Shown here piece by piece: positions 3,012-11,414 of a DNA stretch of 32,000 nt. Each line of letters starts with the position of its first letter. Within the stretch, counting starts at the first letter, position 1. This stretch comes from Candidatus Poseidoniaceae archaeon (lineage in GTDB: Archaea > Thermoplasmatota > Poseidoniia > Poseidoniales > Poseidoniaceae). The notes beneath the pieces were generated by a model that was not told the DNA's origin, made no database searches, and worked only from the letters and a program-made list of their open reading frames with translations. The position numbers and the translations under genes are program-made. The stretch lies in NCBI GenBank assembly GCA_943789275.1, contig CALSTM010000003.1, forward strand, positions 360,001 through 392,000. Direction: 5' to 3'.

Positions 3012-5177
3012 TTAACTGCGCTTCCATTCGTTTCCAGTCCACCAGTAGCTCGAGCCATCGTCCATTTTACGCCAAGTATAACCTGCTTCATCGGTCCATT
3101 GTTGCAGGACGACAGGCTCTGCAGCGACCACCGGTTGTTGAGTCACGGGTTGTTGGTGCGTTTGCTGGACAGGTGTTACCTGCGGCTGGACAGGAAGAGA
3201 AGCGAACTGCTTCACTTCTTCATCCGTAGAATCATTTCCACGGCGCATAAAAAGAACAGCGCCAACAGCGCCAACGACCAGAACAACAACTCCAATGATG
3301 GTGAACATCTGCTTTTGAGCTGCTTTTTCTTCGGCAGCGAGATTTTCTGCAACCAGTTGTGCATTGTCACCGACTCCATCTCCATCGGTGTCGAGCGTTT
3401 CAGTAGCATCGTTCGGGAATGCATCGGCATTGTCGCCTGCACCGTCACCGTCTGAATCAGCAGATTCGCTGGCATCTGTAGGGAATACGTCAGCGTTGTT
3501 TCCAACACCGTCTCCGTCGTCGTCAAGCGTTTCGGTTGCATCGTTCGGTAATGCGTCAGCATTATCGCCAACGCCATCCATGTCACTGTCCAACGTTTCA
3601 GCAGCATCGGCTGGGAACGCATCAGCATTGTCGCCAACGCCGTCCATATCCGTATCAAGCGTTTCAGTGGCGTCATTCGGGAATGCGTCAGCGTTGTTTC
3701 CTACGCCGTCTCCGTCGTCATCAAGCGTTTCACTCGCGTCATTCGGGAATGCGTCAGCGTTGTCTCCTACGCCGTCGGTATCCGTATCGAGTGTTTCATT
3801 GGCGTCATCAGGAAATACATCTGCGTTGTCGCCAACCCCGTCACCATCCGTATCGACGGTTTCAGTTGCATCGTTGGGAAACTCATCTGCGTTATCACCA
3901 ACACCATCTTCATCCGAGTCGGTCGATTCAGTTGCATCGTTGGGAAACTCATCAGCATTATCGCCGACACCATCGCTGTCAGCGTCAGAAGATTCAGTCG
4001 CATCGTTCGGAAACACATCTGCGATATCGCCCACGCCATCGCCATCAAAATCACTTGACTCGTTGGCATCGTTTGGGAAGGCATCAGCATTATCCCCGAC
4101 ACCGTCTCCATCGGTATCGACGGTTTCAGTCGCATCGTTTGGGAAGGCATCAGCATTATCGCCGACACCGTCTCCATCCGTATCTGCTGATTCACTTGCA
4201 TCATTCGGAGCCCAATCGCCGTTGTCACCTACGCCGTCTCCATCGGTATCGACGGTTTCAGTCGCATCGTTCGGAAACACGTCAGCGTTGTCACCGACTC
4301 CATCGGAATCTGAATCTTGATGTTCATTTGGATCGTCCGGGAATGCATCACTTTGATCACCGTATCCATCGTTATCAGAATCATAATCGATAATTTCGAC
4401 CGAATTTGAGGAGGCTACTGCAGTCCCCAAATCCGTTCCATCGTTTGGAGTCACGGTCATTGTCCACATCTCACCTATCGAAGTGTACGATTGAGGAACA
4501 TTGATGAAATCGTTACGCTGTGAAACTGCACTGCCATCCTTGGTCCATCGAATCTGAGTGTTTGATTCAACATCGCCGTCATCATCCGTATAGTCGTAGT
4601 TGGCAAAAAGTTCCTGATCATGGTATGCTTGTGTGATTGAACTGGAGCCCTGAGTAAGACTCACAAATACATTCGAGGCCAAAGGTGGGGTATTTTGTGT
4701 GACGATTTCAGTGATTGAGACGCTGTTTGTGTCCCATGCATCGCCCGAATTTTGGCTGTTTCCATTTCCTTGAAGAACCGCAATGTTGACGCTTACAGTA
4801 CCGCTTCCACCAACAGGTGCTTGCCAGTCAAAGGTCCATCCGAGTTGACCAGAGCCGGTGTGTGTTGCACTGGTGCCGCTTTGGATTTGGACTCCGGTTC
4901 CAGCATTTTGAAGTGTGCCTTTGTTCACAACGACGTTAAATCCTCCAACAAAAGCTTGTGTTCCACCAGTATGACCGATGTTGATGTTGTATACCTGTCC
5001 TGCGTTGTAGGATGTTGGGAAGTCGTCGGTGGCCGTTATGCCACCAGCATTGTAGTGGCAAGTGCAACCTGTCGAGGCTTGGTTATGCTTACCCGAGGAA
5101 CTTCCCTGAATTGCAGGAACAGTTGCGAGTAGAAAGAACACTGCAAGACATAGGATAGTACGCTTATACGACTTCAT
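3012..5177 (-). CDS. Membrane-anchored surface protein with about 16 thrombospondin type-3-like Ca-binding repeats
   Basis: ORF 3012..5354 is trimmed to the Met at 5177 because MKSYKRTILCLAVFFLLATVPAIQG looks like a signal peptide. A beta-rich N-terminal domain is followed by tandem 22-aa units D-x-D-x-D-G-V-G-D-N-A-D-x-F-P-N-D-A-x-E-x-x. Then come a TM helix (FTIIGVVVLVVGAVGAVLF) and a P/Q-rich tail ending in a W-rich motif. Confidence 0.85.
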   Translation of the reverse strand: MKSYKRTILCLAVFFLLATVPAIQGSSSGKHNQASTGCTCHYNAGGITATDDFPTSYNAGQVYNINIGHTGGTQAFVGGFNVVVNKGTLQNAGTGVQIQSGTSATHTGSGQLGWTFDWQAPVGGSGTVSVNIAVLQGNGNSQNSGDAWDTNSVSITEIVTQNTPPLASNVFVSLTQGSSSITQAYHDQELFANYDYTDDDGDVESNTQIRWTKDGSAVSQRNDFINVPQSYTSIGEMWTMTVTPNDGTDLGTAVASSNSVEIIDYDSDNDGYGDQSDAFPDDPNEHQDSDSDGVGDNADVFPNDATETVDTDGDGVGDNGDWAPNDASESADTDGDGVGDNADAFPNDATETVDTDGDGVGDNADAFPNDANESSDFDGDGVGDIADVFPNDATESSDADSDGVGDNADEFPNDATESTDSDEDGVGDNADEFPNDATETVDTDGDGVGDNADVFPDDANETLDTDTDGVGDNADAFPNDASETLDDDGDGVGNNADAFPNDATETLDTDMDGVGDNADAFPADAAETLDSDMDGVGDNADALPNDATETLDDDGDGVGNNADVFPTDASESADSDGDGAGDNADAFPNDATETLDTDGDGVGDNAQLVAENLAAEEKAAQKQMFTIIGVVVLVVGAVGAVLFMRRGNDSTDEEVKQFASLPVQPQVTPVQQTHQQPVTQQPVVAAEPVVLQQWTDEAGYTWRKMDDGSSYWWTGNEWKRS
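3363..4388 (-). repeat. Tandem 66-nt (22-codon) coding repeat array, about 15.5 copies
   Basis: The period was measured directly: gcgtcagcgttgt recurs at 3685 and 3751, 66 nt apart. Protein units such as DTDGDGVGDNADAFPNDATETV recur nearly identically. Confidence 0.9.
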
Positions 5178-5223
5178 AAGAAACGCTTGGGCGTGTAGGT
5201 ATTGAATGTATTGGGTTGAAAAC

Positions 5224-7929
5224 TCATTCTTCCTGCAGGTATTCACTTCCAAGAGATGCTGCATTAGAGAGAGTATCTTCGACCGAATTTGAATATTTTT
5301 TGACCGTTTTTGAGGACTTTGGATTGTTGAAGAAGGTAACATATACCGCCCCAATCACACATGCCAATGCCAGAGCATACAATCCATTGGAGAGTGTAAA
5401 CTTGCTTTCAGAAGAGGCGTCGCCATCTGAGGAACCACCGATATCAACCTGGCAACCTGCAAGGTCGACAATGCGTCCTGAATCAGTGTTTTGACACAAA
5501 TCAATTGCATTTGGAATGCCGTCTAAATCGTCATCCAGTTGGTATTGACTGCAACCTGTGATTCCCACTTGTTGGCCTGCTACTGTACGCGAACACAAAT
5601 CATTGATGTCAAGCACTCCATCTTCATCGTCGTCGTCATCTTCGGCACTGTCAATGCATCCGTCCCCATCCACATCTTGTCCTTGAGCAGCGATACCTAA
5701 AATGCCGGTTGGACAATTATCAATTCGATCGTTCACTCCATCTCTGTCGTCGTCCTCATCTTCACTGATGTCCCGACAACCGTCACCATCGTGATCATCG
5801 ATGGAGGCGCTGTCACTCCACCGGACATCGCCTCTGGGGCACGAATCAAGTGCATCGAGAACACCATCCTCATCGTCGTCAAAATCAGTGATCGAATCGT
5901 GGCAACCGTCCTGATCGTGGTCATTGATTTGGGTTGAGGTCCAAACCGGCGAATCTCGAGGGCAATTGTCCGTTGAGTTTGCAATTTCATCACCGTCTTC
6001 GTCGATATCACAACCGTCCCCGATATTATCGCCGTCAAGGTCTGCTTGCATTGGATTGGATAAGAACGGGCAATTGTCCATTTGGTCGACCCAATCGTCT
6101 CCATCGGTATCGATGTCAGCACATCCGTCTCCTTCGGCGTCGACTTCCGGAGTTGATTTCCAACCCACAGGGCCCAAGGGGCATAAGTCGACATGATCGA
6201 AAACGTTGTCTTCGTCATCATCGAAATCTTCAGTTGCATCTTTGCACCCGTCGCCGTCGTGGTCCGTTGAACCTTCAGAAAACCAATTGATGTCACCAAA
6301 TGGACAATCGTCATTCGTATCGGAGATTCCATCGTTATCGTCGTCCTCATCGCATACATCGCCCTTGAGGTCCTCGTCAAAATTGGTTTGAGCCATGTTT
6401 GAAATCCTTGGACAATTGTCTTCTCCATCAAGCACCCCGTCGCTGTCTCGGTCGGTCTGGTAAAGCCACACTCCAATATCGAAGGACCCTAAGGAAGTAG
6501 CGTTGTACGGGCCTGTAGAGAAATCTCCGTTGAAAATATAGGAAAGTAACGGTGAACCGTCTTCAGCAACCTCAAGAGCAACCGCCTCGTCGTACCCGTC
6601 ACCTCCAGCAGAGATGGCCCATTCCCACGTGTTATTTTCGAGTAACTCGGCAAGGAAAATATCGTAGTGATTTTCGTCACTGAAACCATCGATATCCGTG
6701 AGAGTGTCTTGTCCGAGAGTGAGGCCAGCGGATGTCACTCCAGTCACGAATGTGGAACCCTGTTTATTGTGAACAATACCAGTAGCACGATCAATACCGT
6801 CTCCGCCACCGGTCACAATATCCACCCATCCACCCGATTGTGAAACTTCTGCCACAAACAAATCTGTTCCGTTGGATTGTCCAGTGTAGAGGGACCCAAA
6901 GGATGCGTTTCCACTGAATTCGCCGACAATCTCAACCCCTGAGGAAGATCTTCCGTCGCAATCCCAAACCCGGTCTTCACCAAGTCCTCCAGCTGTAAGA
7001 GCCCAATCCCATCCGAATTCTGAGTATCGAGCAACGGCTATACCCGAGGGACCATCGGAGAGGAGATTCGTTTCGTTGAAAATGAGTTCACCAGTGAAAG
7101 TAGCGGCGACATATGTGGCGCCTAAGCCATCGATGCAAAGCGACCCAGTAGGCTCAATCCCTCCGATGGTATCTGTTTTCACATGAGAGAGAGACTCGCC
7201 GTTTTCGTTGAAAGACGCAATTAAGAGTGATTGGTCTGTGGAAGCCTCCAGGATGGTGTTGTTCAGTTCGACATCTCCAGTGAATCCAACAGCTAAGTGG
7301 ATGTTGTTTTCGGGTGTGACGAGCATGTCGATGACAAAAAGTTCATTTTCGTTTCGAATTTGTGTTGCCCACACCCATTCTCTTGAGGCGTCCATTCTCG
7401 CAACAAAGGCATTCCCCTCATCGAAGTACGAGTCTTTTTCCAGAGGGGCTAAATCGCCCAGTTCCAGTTCGCATACGATGCCAATGCTGTTCATGCAGTA
7501 TGTCCCCGCAACGATCAAATCACCGTTTGGCATCAATGCTATCGCATCAACAGAATCCGTAGTAACCGAGCCTTCGCTCATGGCTGTAATCCAAGTGCCG
7601 TTCGGTTCTGTCCAGCCGAGGAAAAAGTCGACGTCCTCTGAGCCACCTTTGGCACCGACCGGATCGATCACGTCATCAAACTGAATGTTCCCTTGAAACC
7701 AACCCGAAGTGATGACACTGCCGTTCGGATACATGAGGCTGTTGGCAACATAATCCATCAACCCTCCACCAAAACTTGTGGTCCAACCGTATGAGGTGTT
7801 GTTGGCTTCTTCGACAGAAGATGGGTTTGCCTTTGAATCAAGTGCGGAGTCGCTTTGAAGAGGGACAGATGACAAACTTGCGGTAACGAGTACGCAGACC
7901 AAAAAAAATGGAATGAGACTCTTGCGCAT
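5224..7929 (-). CDS. Secreted, TM-anchored protein: beta-propeller-like (SBBP-type) N-terminal half plus Cys-containing thrombospondin type-3 repeats
   Basis: 901 codons with signal peptide MRKSLIPFFLVCVLVTASLSS. The N-terminal half has repeated G..D.a.aia...dG.i.v.G.f.G....g / DaFva blades. The C-terminal half has DxDxDGxxDxxDNCP units (e.g. DNCPFLSNPMQADLDGDNIGDGCD). The C-terminal TM is LYALALACVIGAVYVTFF. Confidence 0.85.
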   Translation of the reverse strand: MRKSLIPFFLVCVLVTASLSSVPLQSDSALDSKANPSSVEEANNTSYGWTTSFGGGLMDYVANSLMYPNGSVITSGWFQGNIQFDDVIDPVGAKGGSEDVDFFLGWTEPNGTWITAMSEGSVTTDSVDAIALMPNGDLIVAGTYCMNSIGIVCELELGDLAPLEKDSYFDEGNAFVARMDASREWVWATQIRNENELFVIDMLVTPENNIHLAVGFTGDVELNNTILEASTDQSLLIASFNENGESLSHVKTDTIGGIEPTGSLCIDGLGATYVAATFTGELIFNETNLLSDGPSGIAVARYSEFGWDWALTAGGLGEDRVWDCDGRSSSGVEIVGEFSGNASFGSLYTGQSNGTDLFVAEVSQSGGWVDIVTGGGDGIDRATGIVHNKQGSTFVTGVTSAGLTLGQDTLTDIDGFSDENHYDIFLAELLENNTWEWAISAGGDGYDEAVALEVAEDGSPLLSYIFNGDFSTGPYNATSLGSFDIGVWLYQTDRDSDGVLDGEDNCPRISNMAQTNFDEDLKGDVCDEDDDNDGISDTNDDCPFGDINWFSEGSTDHDGDGCKDATEDFDDDEDNVFDHVDLCPLGPVGWKSTPEVDAEGDGCADIDTDGDDWVDQMDNCPFLSNPMQADLDGDNIGDGCDIDEDGDEIANSTDNCPRDSPVWTSTQINDHDQDGCHDSITDFDDDEDGVLDALDSCPRGDVRWSDSASIDDHDGDGCRDISEDEDDDRDGVNDRIDNCPTGILGIAAQGQDVDGDGCIDSAEDDDDDEDGVLDINDLCSRTVAGQQVGITGCSQYQLDDDLDGIPNAIDLCQNTDSGRIVDLAGCQVDIGGSSDGDASSESKFTLSNGLYALALACVIGAVYVTFFNNPKSSKTVKKYSNSVEDTLSNAASLGSEYLQEE
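5440..6452 (-). repeat. Degenerate protein-level TSP3 repeat region (D-rich, Cys-containing)
   Basis: About 9-10 units of D.D.DG..D..D.CP are seen in translation. Nucleotide identity between units is much lower than in the 3363..4388 array. Boundaries are approximate. Confidence 0.6.
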
Positions 7930-7941
7930 GTTTTACGGACC

Positions 7942-8574
7942 ATGTTACAGCATTTGAAACCGTGTGTTTTTTGTCCCACAAGTTCATGTCGGGCCCACCA
8001 ATGGATTTCCATGGACGCCCCTCAAGGAGTATGGCGTCGTTCTCTTGAGCAAAAAGAATCAATCCAAGCAAGTTTGAATCTAGCAAACCTCGATTCATGG
8101 CCATCATGGAACACTTCTGCTCAACGCGTTCTTTCCGAATCGACGGGGAGTCTCCATGTTGGGCAGCGGTTTGACCTTCATCGCATCGAACGTCAGCGCC
8201 TGATCGAGGAGATGTGGGAAGTAAGTGCCATTCGGCAGGGTGACAAACCAAAGTTCATCGAAATGGAATTTGATTGGCTCGGGCAACAGCGCGAAGGGAA
8301 AGCAATTGGGACTTCATTGAAATCGTTGAAGATGAGTGTGACTGTACTTTGTGAATCCGAAGGCGGCATAGAAATAGCTGCGTGGTGGACTGTATCCAGG
8401 TGGTCAAGATTTTTCCGAGGGCGAGTGAATGCACAGGCGAGAGCATTCGCTGCACAGTGGTTGCATGATTTATCCGGTCCCGGTACAGAGTCAATTGGCG
8501 ATTCACAGCCCCTTGCCTTTGTCGAAATTGAAAGCGAGGATTCAAAGACGGTCGGCGACGACGATGTGCGATGA
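7942..8574 (+). CDS. Hypothetical protein (orphan), upstream partner of the TPD-motif nuclease
   Basis: This is the only long ORF in the region with protein-like composition. Its TGA (8572-8574) overlaps the next ATG (8571-8573) as ATGA. The true start is uncertain; Met at 8011 (MDAPQG...) is plausible. No recognisable motifs. Confidence 0.4.
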   Translation: MLQHLKPCVFCPTSSCRAHQWISMDAPQGVWRRSLEQKESIQASLNLANLDSWPSWNTSAQRVLSESTGSLHVGQRFDLHRIERQRLIEEMWEVSAIRQGDKPKFIEMEFDWLGQQREGKAIGTSLKSLKMSVTVLCESEGGIEIAAWWTVSRWSRFFRGRVNAQARAFAAQWLHDLSGPGTESIGDSQPLAFVEIESEDSKTVGDDDVR

Positions 8575-9650
8575 CCCGACAGAACCGAGACAATCAAGGT
8601 GGCTCATCTTCGCGTAATAAAAACCGCTCGAATAAGAACCGTGATGGCCGGCGAAACAATCGACAGCGCCGTTACGGAAGCACCCTGAAATCCACACTTG
8701 AGGAACGTAATGCCTCGGAGATTGCTCGGATGGAGGAGCAGGCCCGTTCACGGTTTGAACAGTCGCCACTGCCGTTGGGTTTTCCAGAGGATACTCCAGA
8801 GCCCAAGACATTCTCGTTTGATTGGGCCACTGTACCAGTGCCTCTCAAGGATGAGGAGGCTATGGCTGGCAAAGTTATGCGCAAAGGCGAATTTGGTTGG
8901 CTTGAAGATGAACGCGTTGACCAAATTGCAGTTATTGCTGAAGGTTACAAGATGACGCTTGAGCAAGCCCTCTCACTCCGCTCCGCCCTGCTCCAGCAAA
9001 AGACGGTGTACGGCCACGGCCGATTACGCTCCCAAGGCAAAAACATGCTCCGCCTTTACAAAGAAGGAGTCAGTGTCGTCGACCTTTCGACTCGGTTTGA
9101 TTTTCCTCCAATGAATATTTTCAGAATTATTCTCACCGAGATGCGCTGGTCGAAATCTAAAATCAAAGAAAGTTTGCGACAGCCAAGCAAACTCAGCAAG
9201 CGTGAACGAACTGAATTTGAGGCGGCAGAAGCGGCTGACCGCGTTTCGAACGTCGATCAAGGTGAATCACAGGAACGGGCTGATTTGTTTGAAGACATAT
9301 TGGCTGATTGGTTTGAAGACCAAGGCGTGCGACTCCGCAGACAACCGGAAATGGTGAAGGAGCAAAAACAAGACTTAGGGCGGCCGGTTCGAACTCCTGA
9401 CATTCTCTTCTTGGACCACGTCGAGATTAACGGCAAGCCAGTTGCTTGGATTGATGCCAAGCACTTCTACGGTGCTGATGTTGATTTCCAACGAAAGAAA
9501 ATGGCGAAACAGATGACTCGGTATATCGAGGAATGGGGCAGTGGAGCCGTAGTTTATCGGCATGGTTTTTCGGCAAATCTCTTCATGCCCGGATGTACGC
9601 TTTTGGATGCGAATGTTTTGGACTTGTCAAAACTCGGCCCCGGGGAATAA
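8571..9650 (+). CDS. PD-(D/E)xK nuclease-like protein with TPD motif (CDIN1/C15orf41-like), basic low-complexity N-terminus
   Basis: The C-terminal region reads GRPVRTPDILFLDHVEINGKPVAWIDAKHFYGADV...WGSGAVVYRHGF. This gives PD then D-x-K 18 residues later, the restriction-endonuclease-like core. The helical region LYKEGVSVVDLSTRFDFPPMNIFRIILTE precedes it. The N-terminal 40 aa are R/N-rich (RNKNRSNKNRDGRRNNRQRR). Confidence 0.6.
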   Translation: MTRQNRDNQGGSSSRNKNRSNKNRDGRRNNRQRRYGSTLKSTLEERNASEIARMEEQARSRFEQSPLPLGFPEDTPEPKTFSFDWATVPVPLKDEEAMAGKVMRKGEFGWLEDERVDQIAVIAEGYKMTLEQALSLRSALLQQKTVYGHGRLRSQGKNMLRLYKEGVSVVDLSTRFDFPPMNIFRIILTEMRWSKSKIKESLRQPSKLSKRERTEFEAAEAADRVSNVDQGESQERADLFEDILADWFEDQGVRLRRQPEMVKEQKQDLGRPVRTPDILFLDHVEINGKPVAWIDAKHFYGADVDFQRKKMAKQMTRYIEEWGSGAVVYRHGFSANLFMPGCTLLDANVLDLSKLGPGE

Positions 9651-10667
9651 TCAGTGTATTCGCGTCTCGATGACGCCAAGGCCAGCGTTGCTTAACGACT
9701 CAGCAATTCGATCCAGTTCCTCAGATGAGAGGGGGCTGTCGAGCCGCCGAGGTAAAACGCATGCTGAAACCCCGAGCATGCATAATCGAACATTGACCCG
9801 GGCTTGTAAATCAAGTTTGAGAATTTCACTGCGAACGGTAGAGAGTAATTTTTTGCGAGCAGGTTCATCGAGTAATCCGGAGTTTTCACCAAAATTTCGC
9901 GACTCGAGCATCAAATCCGGCCATCTTTCGAAGTTCCAATCCTTGAGCTTTAATCGAGATACTGATCGTTCACCGGCTTCCGAAATAGAACGCTTCCATC
10001 CTTCATCGTCGATGTATTTTGAGGTGTGGCGACTTTCATTGGTTTGCCATGTGAGGAGAATGGGTTGTACGCTGGTAAAACTCACAACCTTTCCACCAGA
10101 ACCAGGCGCACCGGGTTGCAATCGCAGTTCCACGCCGTTTTTGGACATGCCAAGTACATCACCGAGCCCAGAACCGTGTTTTCGTTCGATACGGTGTGCT
10201 ATGCGAAGATATTGTTCTTCAGTACCTTTGCCAGTGATGGAGTAAAACCCTCGAGCGACAGCGAGTAGACCTGCAGCAGACATTCCAAAGCCTTGGCTTG
10301 TTGGAAGTTCAAGTTGCACTCGTATTCTGTACGAATCTGCCGGTGTGAGCAGCCGGGAGCTCCGCAACTCATTGACCAGGTCAACGTAAAGGAGTGAAGA
10401 ATTTTCTACTTCAACACCCTCCATGTTCACGACTTCGATATGAATCGCACCGTTCTCAACCGGTCCTGCCGGAACATCCAGTTCTGAACCTGCCGAAACG
10501 AGTGCACCGACTTCGGGCAAGTTTGTTGAGACATATTCGACCGTCGCCTCTACTCCCGTAGCGACGTTAAATCCGGCACCTCGACTTCCCTGGGAACGCG
10601 CTAAATGTGCGTCTTTCCAAATCGAAAACAGGAGCGTAATGTGCCCCCCGCATCGTTCCACTGCCAT
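9651..10667 (-). CDS. Pantoate kinase (archaeal CoA pathway, GHMP superfamily, COG1829-type)
   Basis: Motifs are GGHITLLF...GSRGAGFNV, the GHMP motif PTSQGFGMSAAGLLAVA, and KHGSGLGDVLGMSKNGVELRLQPGAPGSG, collinear with characterised Thermococcus pantoate kinase as I recall it. The track start at 10685 is TTG; the first ATG at 10667 gives MAVERCGGHIT. Confidence 0.75.
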   Translation of the reverse strand: MAVERCGGHITLLFSIWKDAHLARSQGSRGAGFNVATGVEATVEYVSTNLPEVGALVSAGSELDVPAGPVENGAIHIEVVNMEGVEVENSSLLYVDLVNELRSSRLLTPADSYRIRVQLELPTSQGFGMSAAGLLAVARGFYSITGKGTEEQYLRIAHRIERKHGSGLGDVLGMSKNGVELRLQPGAPGSGGKVVSFTSVQPILLTWQTNESRHTSKYIDDEGWKRSISEAGERSVSRLKLKDWNFERWPDLMLESRNFGENSGLLDEPARKKLLSTVRSEILKLDLQARVNVRLCMLGVSACVLPRRLDSPLSSEELDRIAESLSNAGLGVIETRIH

Positions 10668-10709
10668 GCCGTTCGACCCTACCAATAGCGGTTGAGTGAT
10701 GAACTCTCG

Positions 10710-11414
10710 CTACGATTCAAGACGGCTCAGTTTATTTCTACGAATCTTGACGGCTTCATTTCTCATTTCCTCGCCGATAATATCGTATCTGTCGTAATCT
10801 TCGAAAGCAGAATACTGCAACTCTTCAATCATGCAAGCGAACTTGTGACACAACATTCGAATATCCATCGGAATCAATTTTTCATCATCAATGCCCCTCC
10901 CTCTTCTTTCAGGTCCGTTCAAGTCGTACCCTTCAATCCAAACATGGTCTGTTTGGTCGTGGGCCAAGAAGAGGTCGAGCATAGGGAGGCGCCTCGCCGT
11001 GCTCACATCGTCCCGTAAACCGAGGGCCATTGAAACCAATTGGTCGCAAAAAGGCAGTTTTCGGTGTTCATAACTCACATCCAAACACAGCGTGCACCAA
11101 AGCCGTTCATGATCGTGCCAAGACAGTTCTTGTTCATAGGACTCTCCAACATTCACTTTTCCACGAAGTGTAGGTTCAACGACGATTACGAATCGGTTCT
11201 TTTCGATGCTTATGCCCATTGTCAACTCATAGATGCGTTGTGATAAACTGTGAATCGTCATTTCAATCACGATAACAGCCCTCTTGCCTTCCACATCGGG
11301 ATGTTCGGAACTGTGTATCTTCACCCAATCTTGGTTTTTACATATTGATTCCAACCATCTCATTGCTTTGTACTCGCTTGGTAGGAGTAAACAATATTTT
11401 TCAAGAGGCGTCAT
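10710..11414 (-). CDS. Hypothetical protein, co-oriented 24 nt upstream of pantoate kinase
   Basis: 234-codon ORF with an ATG start, a TAG stop and protein-like composition. No motif recognised. A TATA-like TTGAAATA lies about 22 nt upstream of the ATG, so the mRNA may be leaderless. Confidence 0.6.
   Translation of the reverse strand: MTPLEKYCLLLPSEYKAMRWLESICKNQDWVKIHSSEHPDVEGKRAVIVIEMTIHSLSQRIYELTMGISIEKNRFVIVVEPTLRGKVNVGESYEQELSWHDHERLWCTLCLDVSYEHRKLPFCDQLVSMALGLRDDVSTARRLPMLDLFLAHDQTDHVWIEGYDLNGPERRGRGIDDEKLIPMDIRMLCHKFACMIEELQYSAFEDYDRYDIIGEEMRNEAVKIRRNKLSRLES

Follow-up and report, generated by a model that had tools for sequence, protein, structure and literature searches.

A 32,000-nucleotide (nt) stretch of DNA from a Candidatus Poseidoniaceae archaeon (assembly GCA_943789275.1, contig CALSTM010000003.1, positions 360,001 to 392,000; hereafter the window, whose numbering is used throughout) carries on its forward strand, at 8571..9650, a gene for a protein of 359 amino acids (aa). 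We consider it likely that this gene encodes a Poseidoniales (Marine Group II) nuclease of the CDIN1/C15orf41 family, the TPD family of Pfam, that it would trim RNA 3' ends in a magnesium-dependent manner, that it entered the lineage by lateral transfer, and that the gene directly upstream is an accessory neighbor. The resemblance to CDIN1 had been pointed out in an earlier note on this DNA, made by reading the sequence alone, which also made proposals about novelty, origin, and pairing with the upstream gene that we take up below.

Family membership and predicted structure

The 359-aa translation of 8571..9650 matches the Pfam TPD model (PF14811) over residues 213-338 with an E-value of 1.9e-19 and a score of 70.3 bits, against a gathering cut-off of 27. 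The match is far above chance, and the resemblance is statistically solid. All of the motifs quoted in the earlier note are present in this product, as confirmed by the map of open reading frames (ORFs) and by direct reading. R274-T275-P276-D277 is encoded at 9390..9401 (T275-P276-D277 at 9393..9401), and W293-I-D295-A-K297 includes the D-x-K that the note had placed 18 residues past the PD, with D295-A-K297 encoded at 9453..9461 and lying at exactly that distance from D277. The codon of E241 (9291..9293) falls within the helix ERADLFEDILADWFEDQGV, and WGSGAVVYRHGF comes after D295-A-K297. In a 36-sequence alignment of the family reaching down to 26% identity, D223, E241, T275, P276, D277, W293, K297, Q314, Y318, G323, and G325 are invariant, and position 295 is either D or E. 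The R/N-rich extra tail that the note had described is also present, but it lies at the N-terminus, in residues 1-45.

For the comparison with human CDIN1, of which searches of the PDB found no chain, we used a sequence of 281 aa. This sequence agrees with the published protein at 19/19 residues whose identities are printed in two papers (PMC13463051; PMC10430152), the 19 positions at which it was checked. A direct BLASTP comparison of the nuclease with human CDIN1 gives an E-value of 4e-9 at 23% identity over 182 residues, and a profile built from the 36 family sequences aligns to human residues 34-257 over about 207 columns with an hhalign probability of 98.8% and an E-value of 6e-17, which upholds the family membership claimed in the note. 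The core of the archaeal protein aligns along most of the human protein, residues 79-359 amounting to 281 residues, equal to the length of human CDIN1. In this alignment E241, D277, D295, and K297 correspond to the human catalytic residues E166, D196, E214, and K216, and T275, Q314, Y318, Q142, H149, R185, and R203 correspond to the human substrate-contact residues T194, Q232, Y236, Q49, H56, R101, and R126 (roles from PMC13463051), so that the catalytic tetrad and seven substrate contacts are common to both proteins. We take these results as support for placing the 359-aa protein in the TPD/CDIN1 (C15orf41) family: none of the PD-(D/E)xK catalytic residues is lacking, and the two domains are laid out as in the human protein.

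The family alignment and the mapping of human residues place a connecting helix and an alpha/beta PD-(D/E)xK catalytic domain at aa 230-359 (9258..9647, forward strand), with key residues E241, D295 (9453-9455), K297 (9459-9461), Q314 (9510-9512), and Y318 (9522-9524). Preceding it, at aa 79-229 (8805..9257), is a predicted all-helical N-domain, the helix-turn-helix-like nucleic-acid-binding part of the protein, delimited from the AlphaFold2 (AF2) model and the aligned human substrate-contact residues. The AF2 model has a mean predicted local distance difference test score (pLDDT) of 89 and a predicted template modeling score (pTM) of 0.85. Residues 1-30 form a disordered basic tail with low pLDDT, followed by helices at 40-63, nine helices between 92 and 222, a long helix at 230-250 that bears E241, and strands at 255-257, 278-280, 283-286, 293-297, 325-329, and 342-346 with helices on their flanks. 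D277 sits just ahead of the strand 278-280 and D295-x-K297 lies on the strand 293-297, which is followed by a helix at 305-322 and the strand 325-329. The model thus has the alpha-beta-beta-beta-alpha-beta order of a PD-(D/E)xK core with the acidic residues placed as expected, and its succession of helical N-domain, long connecting helix, and alpha/beta/alpha C-domain with a mixed sheet fits the description of human CDIN1 (PMC13463051).

Searches of a viral structure library with this model returned several full-length matches: an unnamed protein (E 4e-25, TM-scores 0.72/0.84), a 'TPD domain-containing protein [Powai lake megavirus]' (E 4e-11), and a 'CDAN1-interacting nuclease 1 [Acanthamoeba polyphaga mimivirus]' (E 1e-8). 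Sequence searches of the PDB with the single protein and with the 36-sequence profile returned no CDIN1 chain and gave T7 endonuclease I at marginal significance; cryogenic electron microscopy studies have been unable to resolve CDIN1 (PMC13463051).

The N-terminal extension, aa 1-78 (8571..8804, forward strand), is not found in human CDIN1. It consists of a disordered R/N/S/K-rich tail at aa 1-40 and then the helices at 40-63, and is strongly basic, with an isoelectric point (pI) of 11.8 for aa 1-45 and 11.0 for aa 1-78. Across relatives the extension is translated and kept in frame without indels, and contains a fixed RRYGST motif.

Predicted activity, distribution, and origin

Human CDIN1 has been reported to cut RNA, not DNA, from the 3' end, acting on double-stranded RNA (dsRNA) and, in RNA:DNA hybrids, on the RNA strand (PMC13463051; Nat Commun, July 2026). 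In the same study the D196A/E214A protein gave no digestion products and Mg2+ was lost from the active site in simulations, and the basic coiled coil of Codanin-1 was found to feed substrate to the CDIN1 active site and to widen its activity to single-stranded RNA (PMC13463051). An earlier study had predicted an Hjc-like PD-(D/E)xK nuclease and saw no activity on DNA or RNA (PMC7261414). Judging from its human homologue, the activity of the archaeal protein is most likely the metal (Mg)-dependent trimming of RNA 3' ends in duplex contexts. The predicted ligands of Mg2+ are E241, D277, and D295, with K297 as the last member of the active site; the cleft that separates the helical from the catalytic domain would hold a free RNA 3' end, from which cleavage would proceed, with a preference for A-form duplexes, either dsRNA or RNA:DNA hybrids. 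More speculatively, the basic 78-residue extension may grip or feed the substrate in place of the basic coiled coil of Codanin-1.

A relative was found in 281 species genomes in a scan of one genome per GTDB species. The locus counts given below refer to the best 80 of these 281 (L011-L090), all of which are Poseidoniales, at 61-97% identity, and include the original Marine Group II assembly CM001443. Identical or near-identical proteins occur on many marine metagenome contigs, and a second profile search, of a set of 5.8 billion proteins, returned near-identical Poseidoniales proteins only. In NCBI these proteins are named 'TPD domain-containing protein' or 'C15orf41 family protein' and come from Candidatus Poseidoniales or Poseidoniaceae archaea; NCBIfam has no model matching the nuclease or the upstream protein. 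We know of no archaeal family member that has been characterized experimentally. Orthologues of C15orf41 in Euryarchaeota were reported in 2020, with a human-archaeal BLAST E-value of 1e-34, and the family was described as absent from other archaeal phyla (PMC7092493). That paper was also the only one to emerge from our literature searches, which covered PF14811 as well as C15orf41 in connection with Marine Group II or with giant viruses. The archaeal CDIN1-family nuclease is therefore already known and annotated, and the premise of novelty in the earlier note, which had the family as usually described as eukaryotic, falls away: the family is widespread in Poseidoniales under NCBI names and its presence in Euryarchaeota is in print.

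In codon comparisons among close relatives the ratio of nonsynonymous to synonymous substitution rates (dN/dS) is 0.013-0.034 for the nuclease gene, versus 0.06 for the neighboring GHMP-kinase gene. With its conservation and its fixed place on the chromosome, the nuclease gene is of the housekeeping type and does not belong to an island or to a mobile or defense element. Purifying selection this strong suggests that in Marine Group II it has a housekeeping role in nucleic-acid processing.

When 1.84 billion cluster representatives were searched exhaustively with HMMER, 1122 family clusters came up at E <= 1e-3, of which the nearest non-archaeal representatives are 36-57% identical to the nuclease over the whole core. 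We refer to these non-archaeal relatives as eukaryote-like or giant-virus-like on the basis of their genomic context, domain fusions, and presence in viral collections. One of them adjoins an oxidoreductase gene in three pieces, as introns would give. The members of a second large group are AT-rich, have 260-300 aa, and are encoded on contigs that look like giant-virus genomes, and 18 loci from IMG/VR, mostly metagenome-assembled genomes (MAGs) of giant viruses, encode relatives at 23-34% identity.

Both groups have features of their own. Most of the eukaryote-like sequences (P0122-P0146; L113, L094, and L114) are long proteins with several N-terminal CxxC...FSxxQW...CxxC zinc-finger repeats. 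These Cys-rich repeats correspond to the eukaryotic Stc1 domain of Pfam, above the gathering score in P0137 (E 9e-7) and sub-threshold in P0143. A fusion of Stc1 fingers with a CDIN1-like nuclease in marine protists, which would fit a role in RNA or chromatin processes, appears to be undescribed. The TPD/CDIN1 family is common in giant viruses, including Mimiviridae and many giant-virus MAGs (L091-L093, L095-L112), and giant-virus structures in BFVD also match (A0A8F8SNR0, A0A167RJG3, and A0A2L2DJP4).

In a neighbor-joining tree the Poseidoniales sequences are monophyletic in 100/100 bootstraps, with short internal branches, and group with P0122, P0123, and P0134 in 75/100. These three and the relatives next to them have Stc1-type zinc fingers or adjoin the intron-split gene. 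The tight archaeal clade, its grouping with eukaryote-like sequences, the homologues in giant viruses, and the reported absence from other archaeal phyla together favor lateral acquisition; judging from these comparisons, the gene was probably acquired once, by the ancestor of Poseidoniales, from marine eukaryotes or their giant viruses.

The upstream gene and the surrounding locus

The gene directly upstream, at 8011..8574 on the forward strand, encodes an acidic, Trp-rich protein of 187 aa with a predicted SRPBCC/START/Bet v 1 helix-grip fold. A longer version of the ORF beginning at 7942 was considered and dropped: gene callers place the start at 8011, the alignment of relatives begins at the same Met, and a start at 7942 would leave just 13 nt to the divergent gene, which starts at 7929. 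The upstream gene thus most likely starts at 8011. The gene is also called on independent contigs, its dN/dS is 0.06-0.12, and its relatives share the conserved blocks WPSW, FDLHRIERQRLIEE, GQQREG, and EIAAWW. This conservation, the dN/dS, and a confidently predicted fold rule out that the ORF is a non-coding artefact.

The AF2 model of the upstream protein has a pLDDT of 85 and a beta-alpha-alpha-beta6-alpha topology. Foldseek against the PDB matches it to PR-10/Bet v 1 proteins, PYR/PYL receptors (PYL2), aromatase/cyclases (ARO/CYC), and TTHA0849 with a probability of 1.0 and E-values of about 1e-5; there are 70 PDB matches at E <= 1e-3, and the best 50 of the 70 are all of Bet v 1/START type (SRPBCC). 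By sequence the protein is an orphan. It has no match in Pfam or NCBIfam, Polyketide_cyc2 appears sub-threshold in 3/25 of its relatives (E >= 0.014), and the 76 clusters that match it are all hypothetical proteins, the named ones from Poseidoniaceae and none with a Pfam domain. As far as these matches go, the family is known only from Poseidoniales-type sequences. The earlier note had called this ORF unrecognizable, which holds for the sequence but not for the predicted fold. Residues 166-187 form a disordered acidic tail, ESEDSKTVGDDDVR, which is variable in length and missing in more distant relatives. The codons for this tail of the START-fold protein immediately precede the overlap with those for the nuclease's very basic N-terminus, and an electrostatic tail-to-tail contact is conceivable.

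On the other side of the upstream gene is a divergent intergenic region of 81 nt (7930..8010) that presumably holds the promoters for both directions. It is bounded by the start, at 7929, of the second of two tandem reverse-strand genes for surface proteins with Ca-binding thrombospondin type 3 (TSP_3) repeats (3012..5354 and 5224..7929). From the 7929 start this second gene would encode a signal-peptide-like N-terminus, and its product has a hydrophobic stretch near the C-terminus; gene callers start it at 7758. A leucyl-tRNA synthetase (LeuRS) gene lies upstream both in loci of the window type and in L055, and the upstream gene and the two TSP_3 genes occupy a variable segment between LeuRS and the nuclease gene. 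The TSP_3 genes are present or absent among Poseidoniaceae, and in L055 LeuRS abuts the nuclease gene.

Downstream, a convergent gene for a GHMP-family kinase (9651..10685, reverse strand) abuts the nuclease gene stop to stop at 9650/9651, with zero intergenic bases, and comes next after the nuclease gene in all related loci that extend far enough. Its product falls far below threshold against models of archaeal pantoate kinase (69 bits against a cut-off of 380). Beyond it, a reverse-strand ORF of 234 aa at 10710..11414 has no match in Pfam, NCBIfam, or PADLOC, and its slot is variable, being occupied by a DUF805 gene in the more distant L005 and L007.

Alternatives and comparison with known systems

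A PD-(D/E)xK core could also belong to a structure-specific DNA nuclease, for instance a Holliday-junction resolvase akin to Hjc or T7 endonuclease I. This was the first proposal made for C15orf41, and similarity to Hjc is noted in the literature (PMC7261414). The stretch with the E-helix and the TPD in the family profile has a weak match in T7 endonuclease I (3cae, E 0.026), and in the viral structure library 'endodeoxyribonuclease I' (probability 0.92) and 'Holliday junction resolvase' (probability 0.30) came up as weak matches. We nevertheless regard this as improbable for the archaeal protein. In two independent studies human CDIN1 did not cleave DNA, be it Holliday junctions, flaps, or forks (PMC7261414; PMC13463051), and cleavage of RNA has been demonstrated (PMC13463051). 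The nuclease is about twice the size of these resolvases and has an additional helical domain, and neither sequence searches nor Foldseek gave a significant match to Hjc or another resolvase; the PDB matches obtained by sequence, by profile, and with Foldseek include no Hjc chain. For the origin of the gene, the alternative to lateral transfer is that eukaryotic CDIN1 descends vertically from the archaeal gene; the earlier note had suggested that the protein could bear on the origin of the eukaryotic nuclease. The roots of C15orf41 have been described as reaching back further than Codanin-1's, with reference to the Euryarchaeota orthologues, but the same report finds the family absent from other archaeal phyla (PMC7092493). 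The best 80 of the 281 genome matches all belong to one order. Moreover, Poseidoniales lie off the lineage leading to eukaryotes, and the tight archaeal clade falls together with eukaryote-like sequences, to which it is 45-57% identical, versus 23% for human CDIN1. Vertical ancestry is in our judgment very unlikely, and one tight archaeal clade amid eukaryote-like sequences fits lateral acquisition better.

The nuclease gene could further be half of an obligate pair, either a nuclease with a regulatory or ligand-sensing subunit, as suggested by the start/stop overlap that the earlier note had reported, or a toxin-antitoxin or defense module. The overlap is real: the ATG of the nuclease gene and the stop of the upstream gene share ATGA at 8571-8574 on the forward strand, as read directly from the sequence, and in this genome the two genes are probably co-transcribed and translationally coupled. 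In the survey of related archaea, the upstream gene lies directly 5' of the nuclease gene on the same strand in 59 of the 80 species-level loci (31-100% identity), mostly at most 50 nt away where the ATG start can be read, and both genes are under purifying selection. However, an overlap, of 1 or 4 nt, is retained only in the closest clade, where the nuclease is >=80% identical, and the more distant loci mostly have gaps of 11-50 nt. The remaining 21 of the 80 loci keep the nuclease gene without the upstream gene by tblastn, and the nuclease ORF is full-length in all three of the partner-less loci that were read through (L048, L078, and L055). In L048, and likewise in L078 (Poseidonia alphae), about 75-90 nt separate the start of the nuclease gene from the divergent TSP_3 gene, with no upstream gene between them, and in L055 the nuclease gene comes directly after LeuRS. 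Adjacency itself says little about function, because the whole neighborhood is syntenic at these phylogenetic distances, and while the nuclease family extends to eukaryotes and giant viruses, the partner family was found among Poseidoniales-type sequences only. The anti-phage defense and toxin-antitoxin versions of this idea were dropped, since PADLOC matches neither the nuclease nor the upstream protein and the position is conserved and syntenic in the Poseidoniales loci that were compared; a very low dN/dS at a fixed locus is also unlike defense or toxin-antitoxin genes. An obligate pairing is accordingly improbable. The upstream gene, which about a quarter of related species lack while keeping the nuclease gene, is thus an accessory neighbor and not an obligate partner. 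It may still, quite speculatively, tune the nuclease on binding a small hydrophobic ligand.

Several points weigh against our reading of the gene as a laterally acquired RNA-trimming nuclease with an accessory neighbor. The RNA-exonuclease assignment would have to hold across a pairwise identity of 23% to the human enzyme, and the human sequence was checked against published residues at 19 positions only. A Foldseek search of the nuclease model against the PDB returned nothing significant, and what speaks for the predicted PD-(D/E)xK fold is confined to the order of the motifs, the predicted secondary structure, and the weak profile match to T7 endonuclease I. The tree was built by neighbor joining on a core of 218 columns, with 100 bootstraps and an arbitrary midpoint root. 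The direction of transfer is tentative, depending as it does on this crude tree, its arbitrary root, and eukaryote-like sequences that come without taxonomy. Absence of the upstream gene in 21 of the 80 loci was judged at the syntenic site, so that the gene could lie elsewhere in those genomes.

To our knowledge, Codanin-1 is not known as a partner outside eukaryotes, and no Codanin-1 has been recognized in archaea. We noticed no Codanin-like gene in the window, although no search aimed at one was made. C15orf41 has been reported in taxa without Codanin-1, archaea included (PMC7092493), and for this reason association with Codanin-1 does not appear to define the family. A bolder picture, to which we give little credence, is that the Poseidoniales enzyme is a naturally Codanin-free CDIN1 in which a basic arm feeds the substrate and, in most lineages, the START-fold protein acts as a regulator that senses a small molecule. 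If it were true, a simple prokaryote could be used to find the conserved substrate of CDIN1 in the cell, for example the RNA 3' ends of R-loops or primers.

The direct impact of this analysis is small, given that the protein was already annotated and its presence in Euryarchaeota published. Its wider interest lies in the occurrence of the family in one archaeal order, in marine protists with Stc1 fusions, and in giant viruses, which makes it a clear candidate for cross-domain transfer in the surface ocean. In addition, a compact archaeal CDIN1 that works without Codanin-1 could serve as a tractable model for the biochemistry and structure of the human nuclease involved in congenital dyserythropoietic anemia type I.

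Compared with known systems, the archaeal protein has the E ... PD ... (D/E)xK motif order in common with T7 endonuclease I and archaeal Hjc, but it is much larger, carries the extra helical domain, and has no significant sequence or Foldseek match to them. The upstream protein resembles SRPBCC/START/Bet v 1 proteins in predicted fold but is only 7-15% identical to them, with TM-scores of just 0.5-0.65. Within the TPD family, the marine-protist proteins have N-terminal Cys-rich Stc1-like repeats instead of the short basic tail of the archaeal protein, and the giant-virus proteins differ in consisting of the core only, at about 260-300 aa, and in being AT-rich. With human CDIN1 the archaeal nuclease shares the arrangement of a helical N-domain, a connecting helix, and a PD-(D/E)xK alpha/beta domain. 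The two differ in sequence (23% pairwise identity), in the third acidic residue, which is D in the archaeal protein and E in the human one, in the 78-aa basic N-terminal extension of the archaeal protein, and in the setting of the archaeal gene, which stands in a prokaryotic operon-like arrangement behind a gene for a protein of predicted SRPBCC fold.

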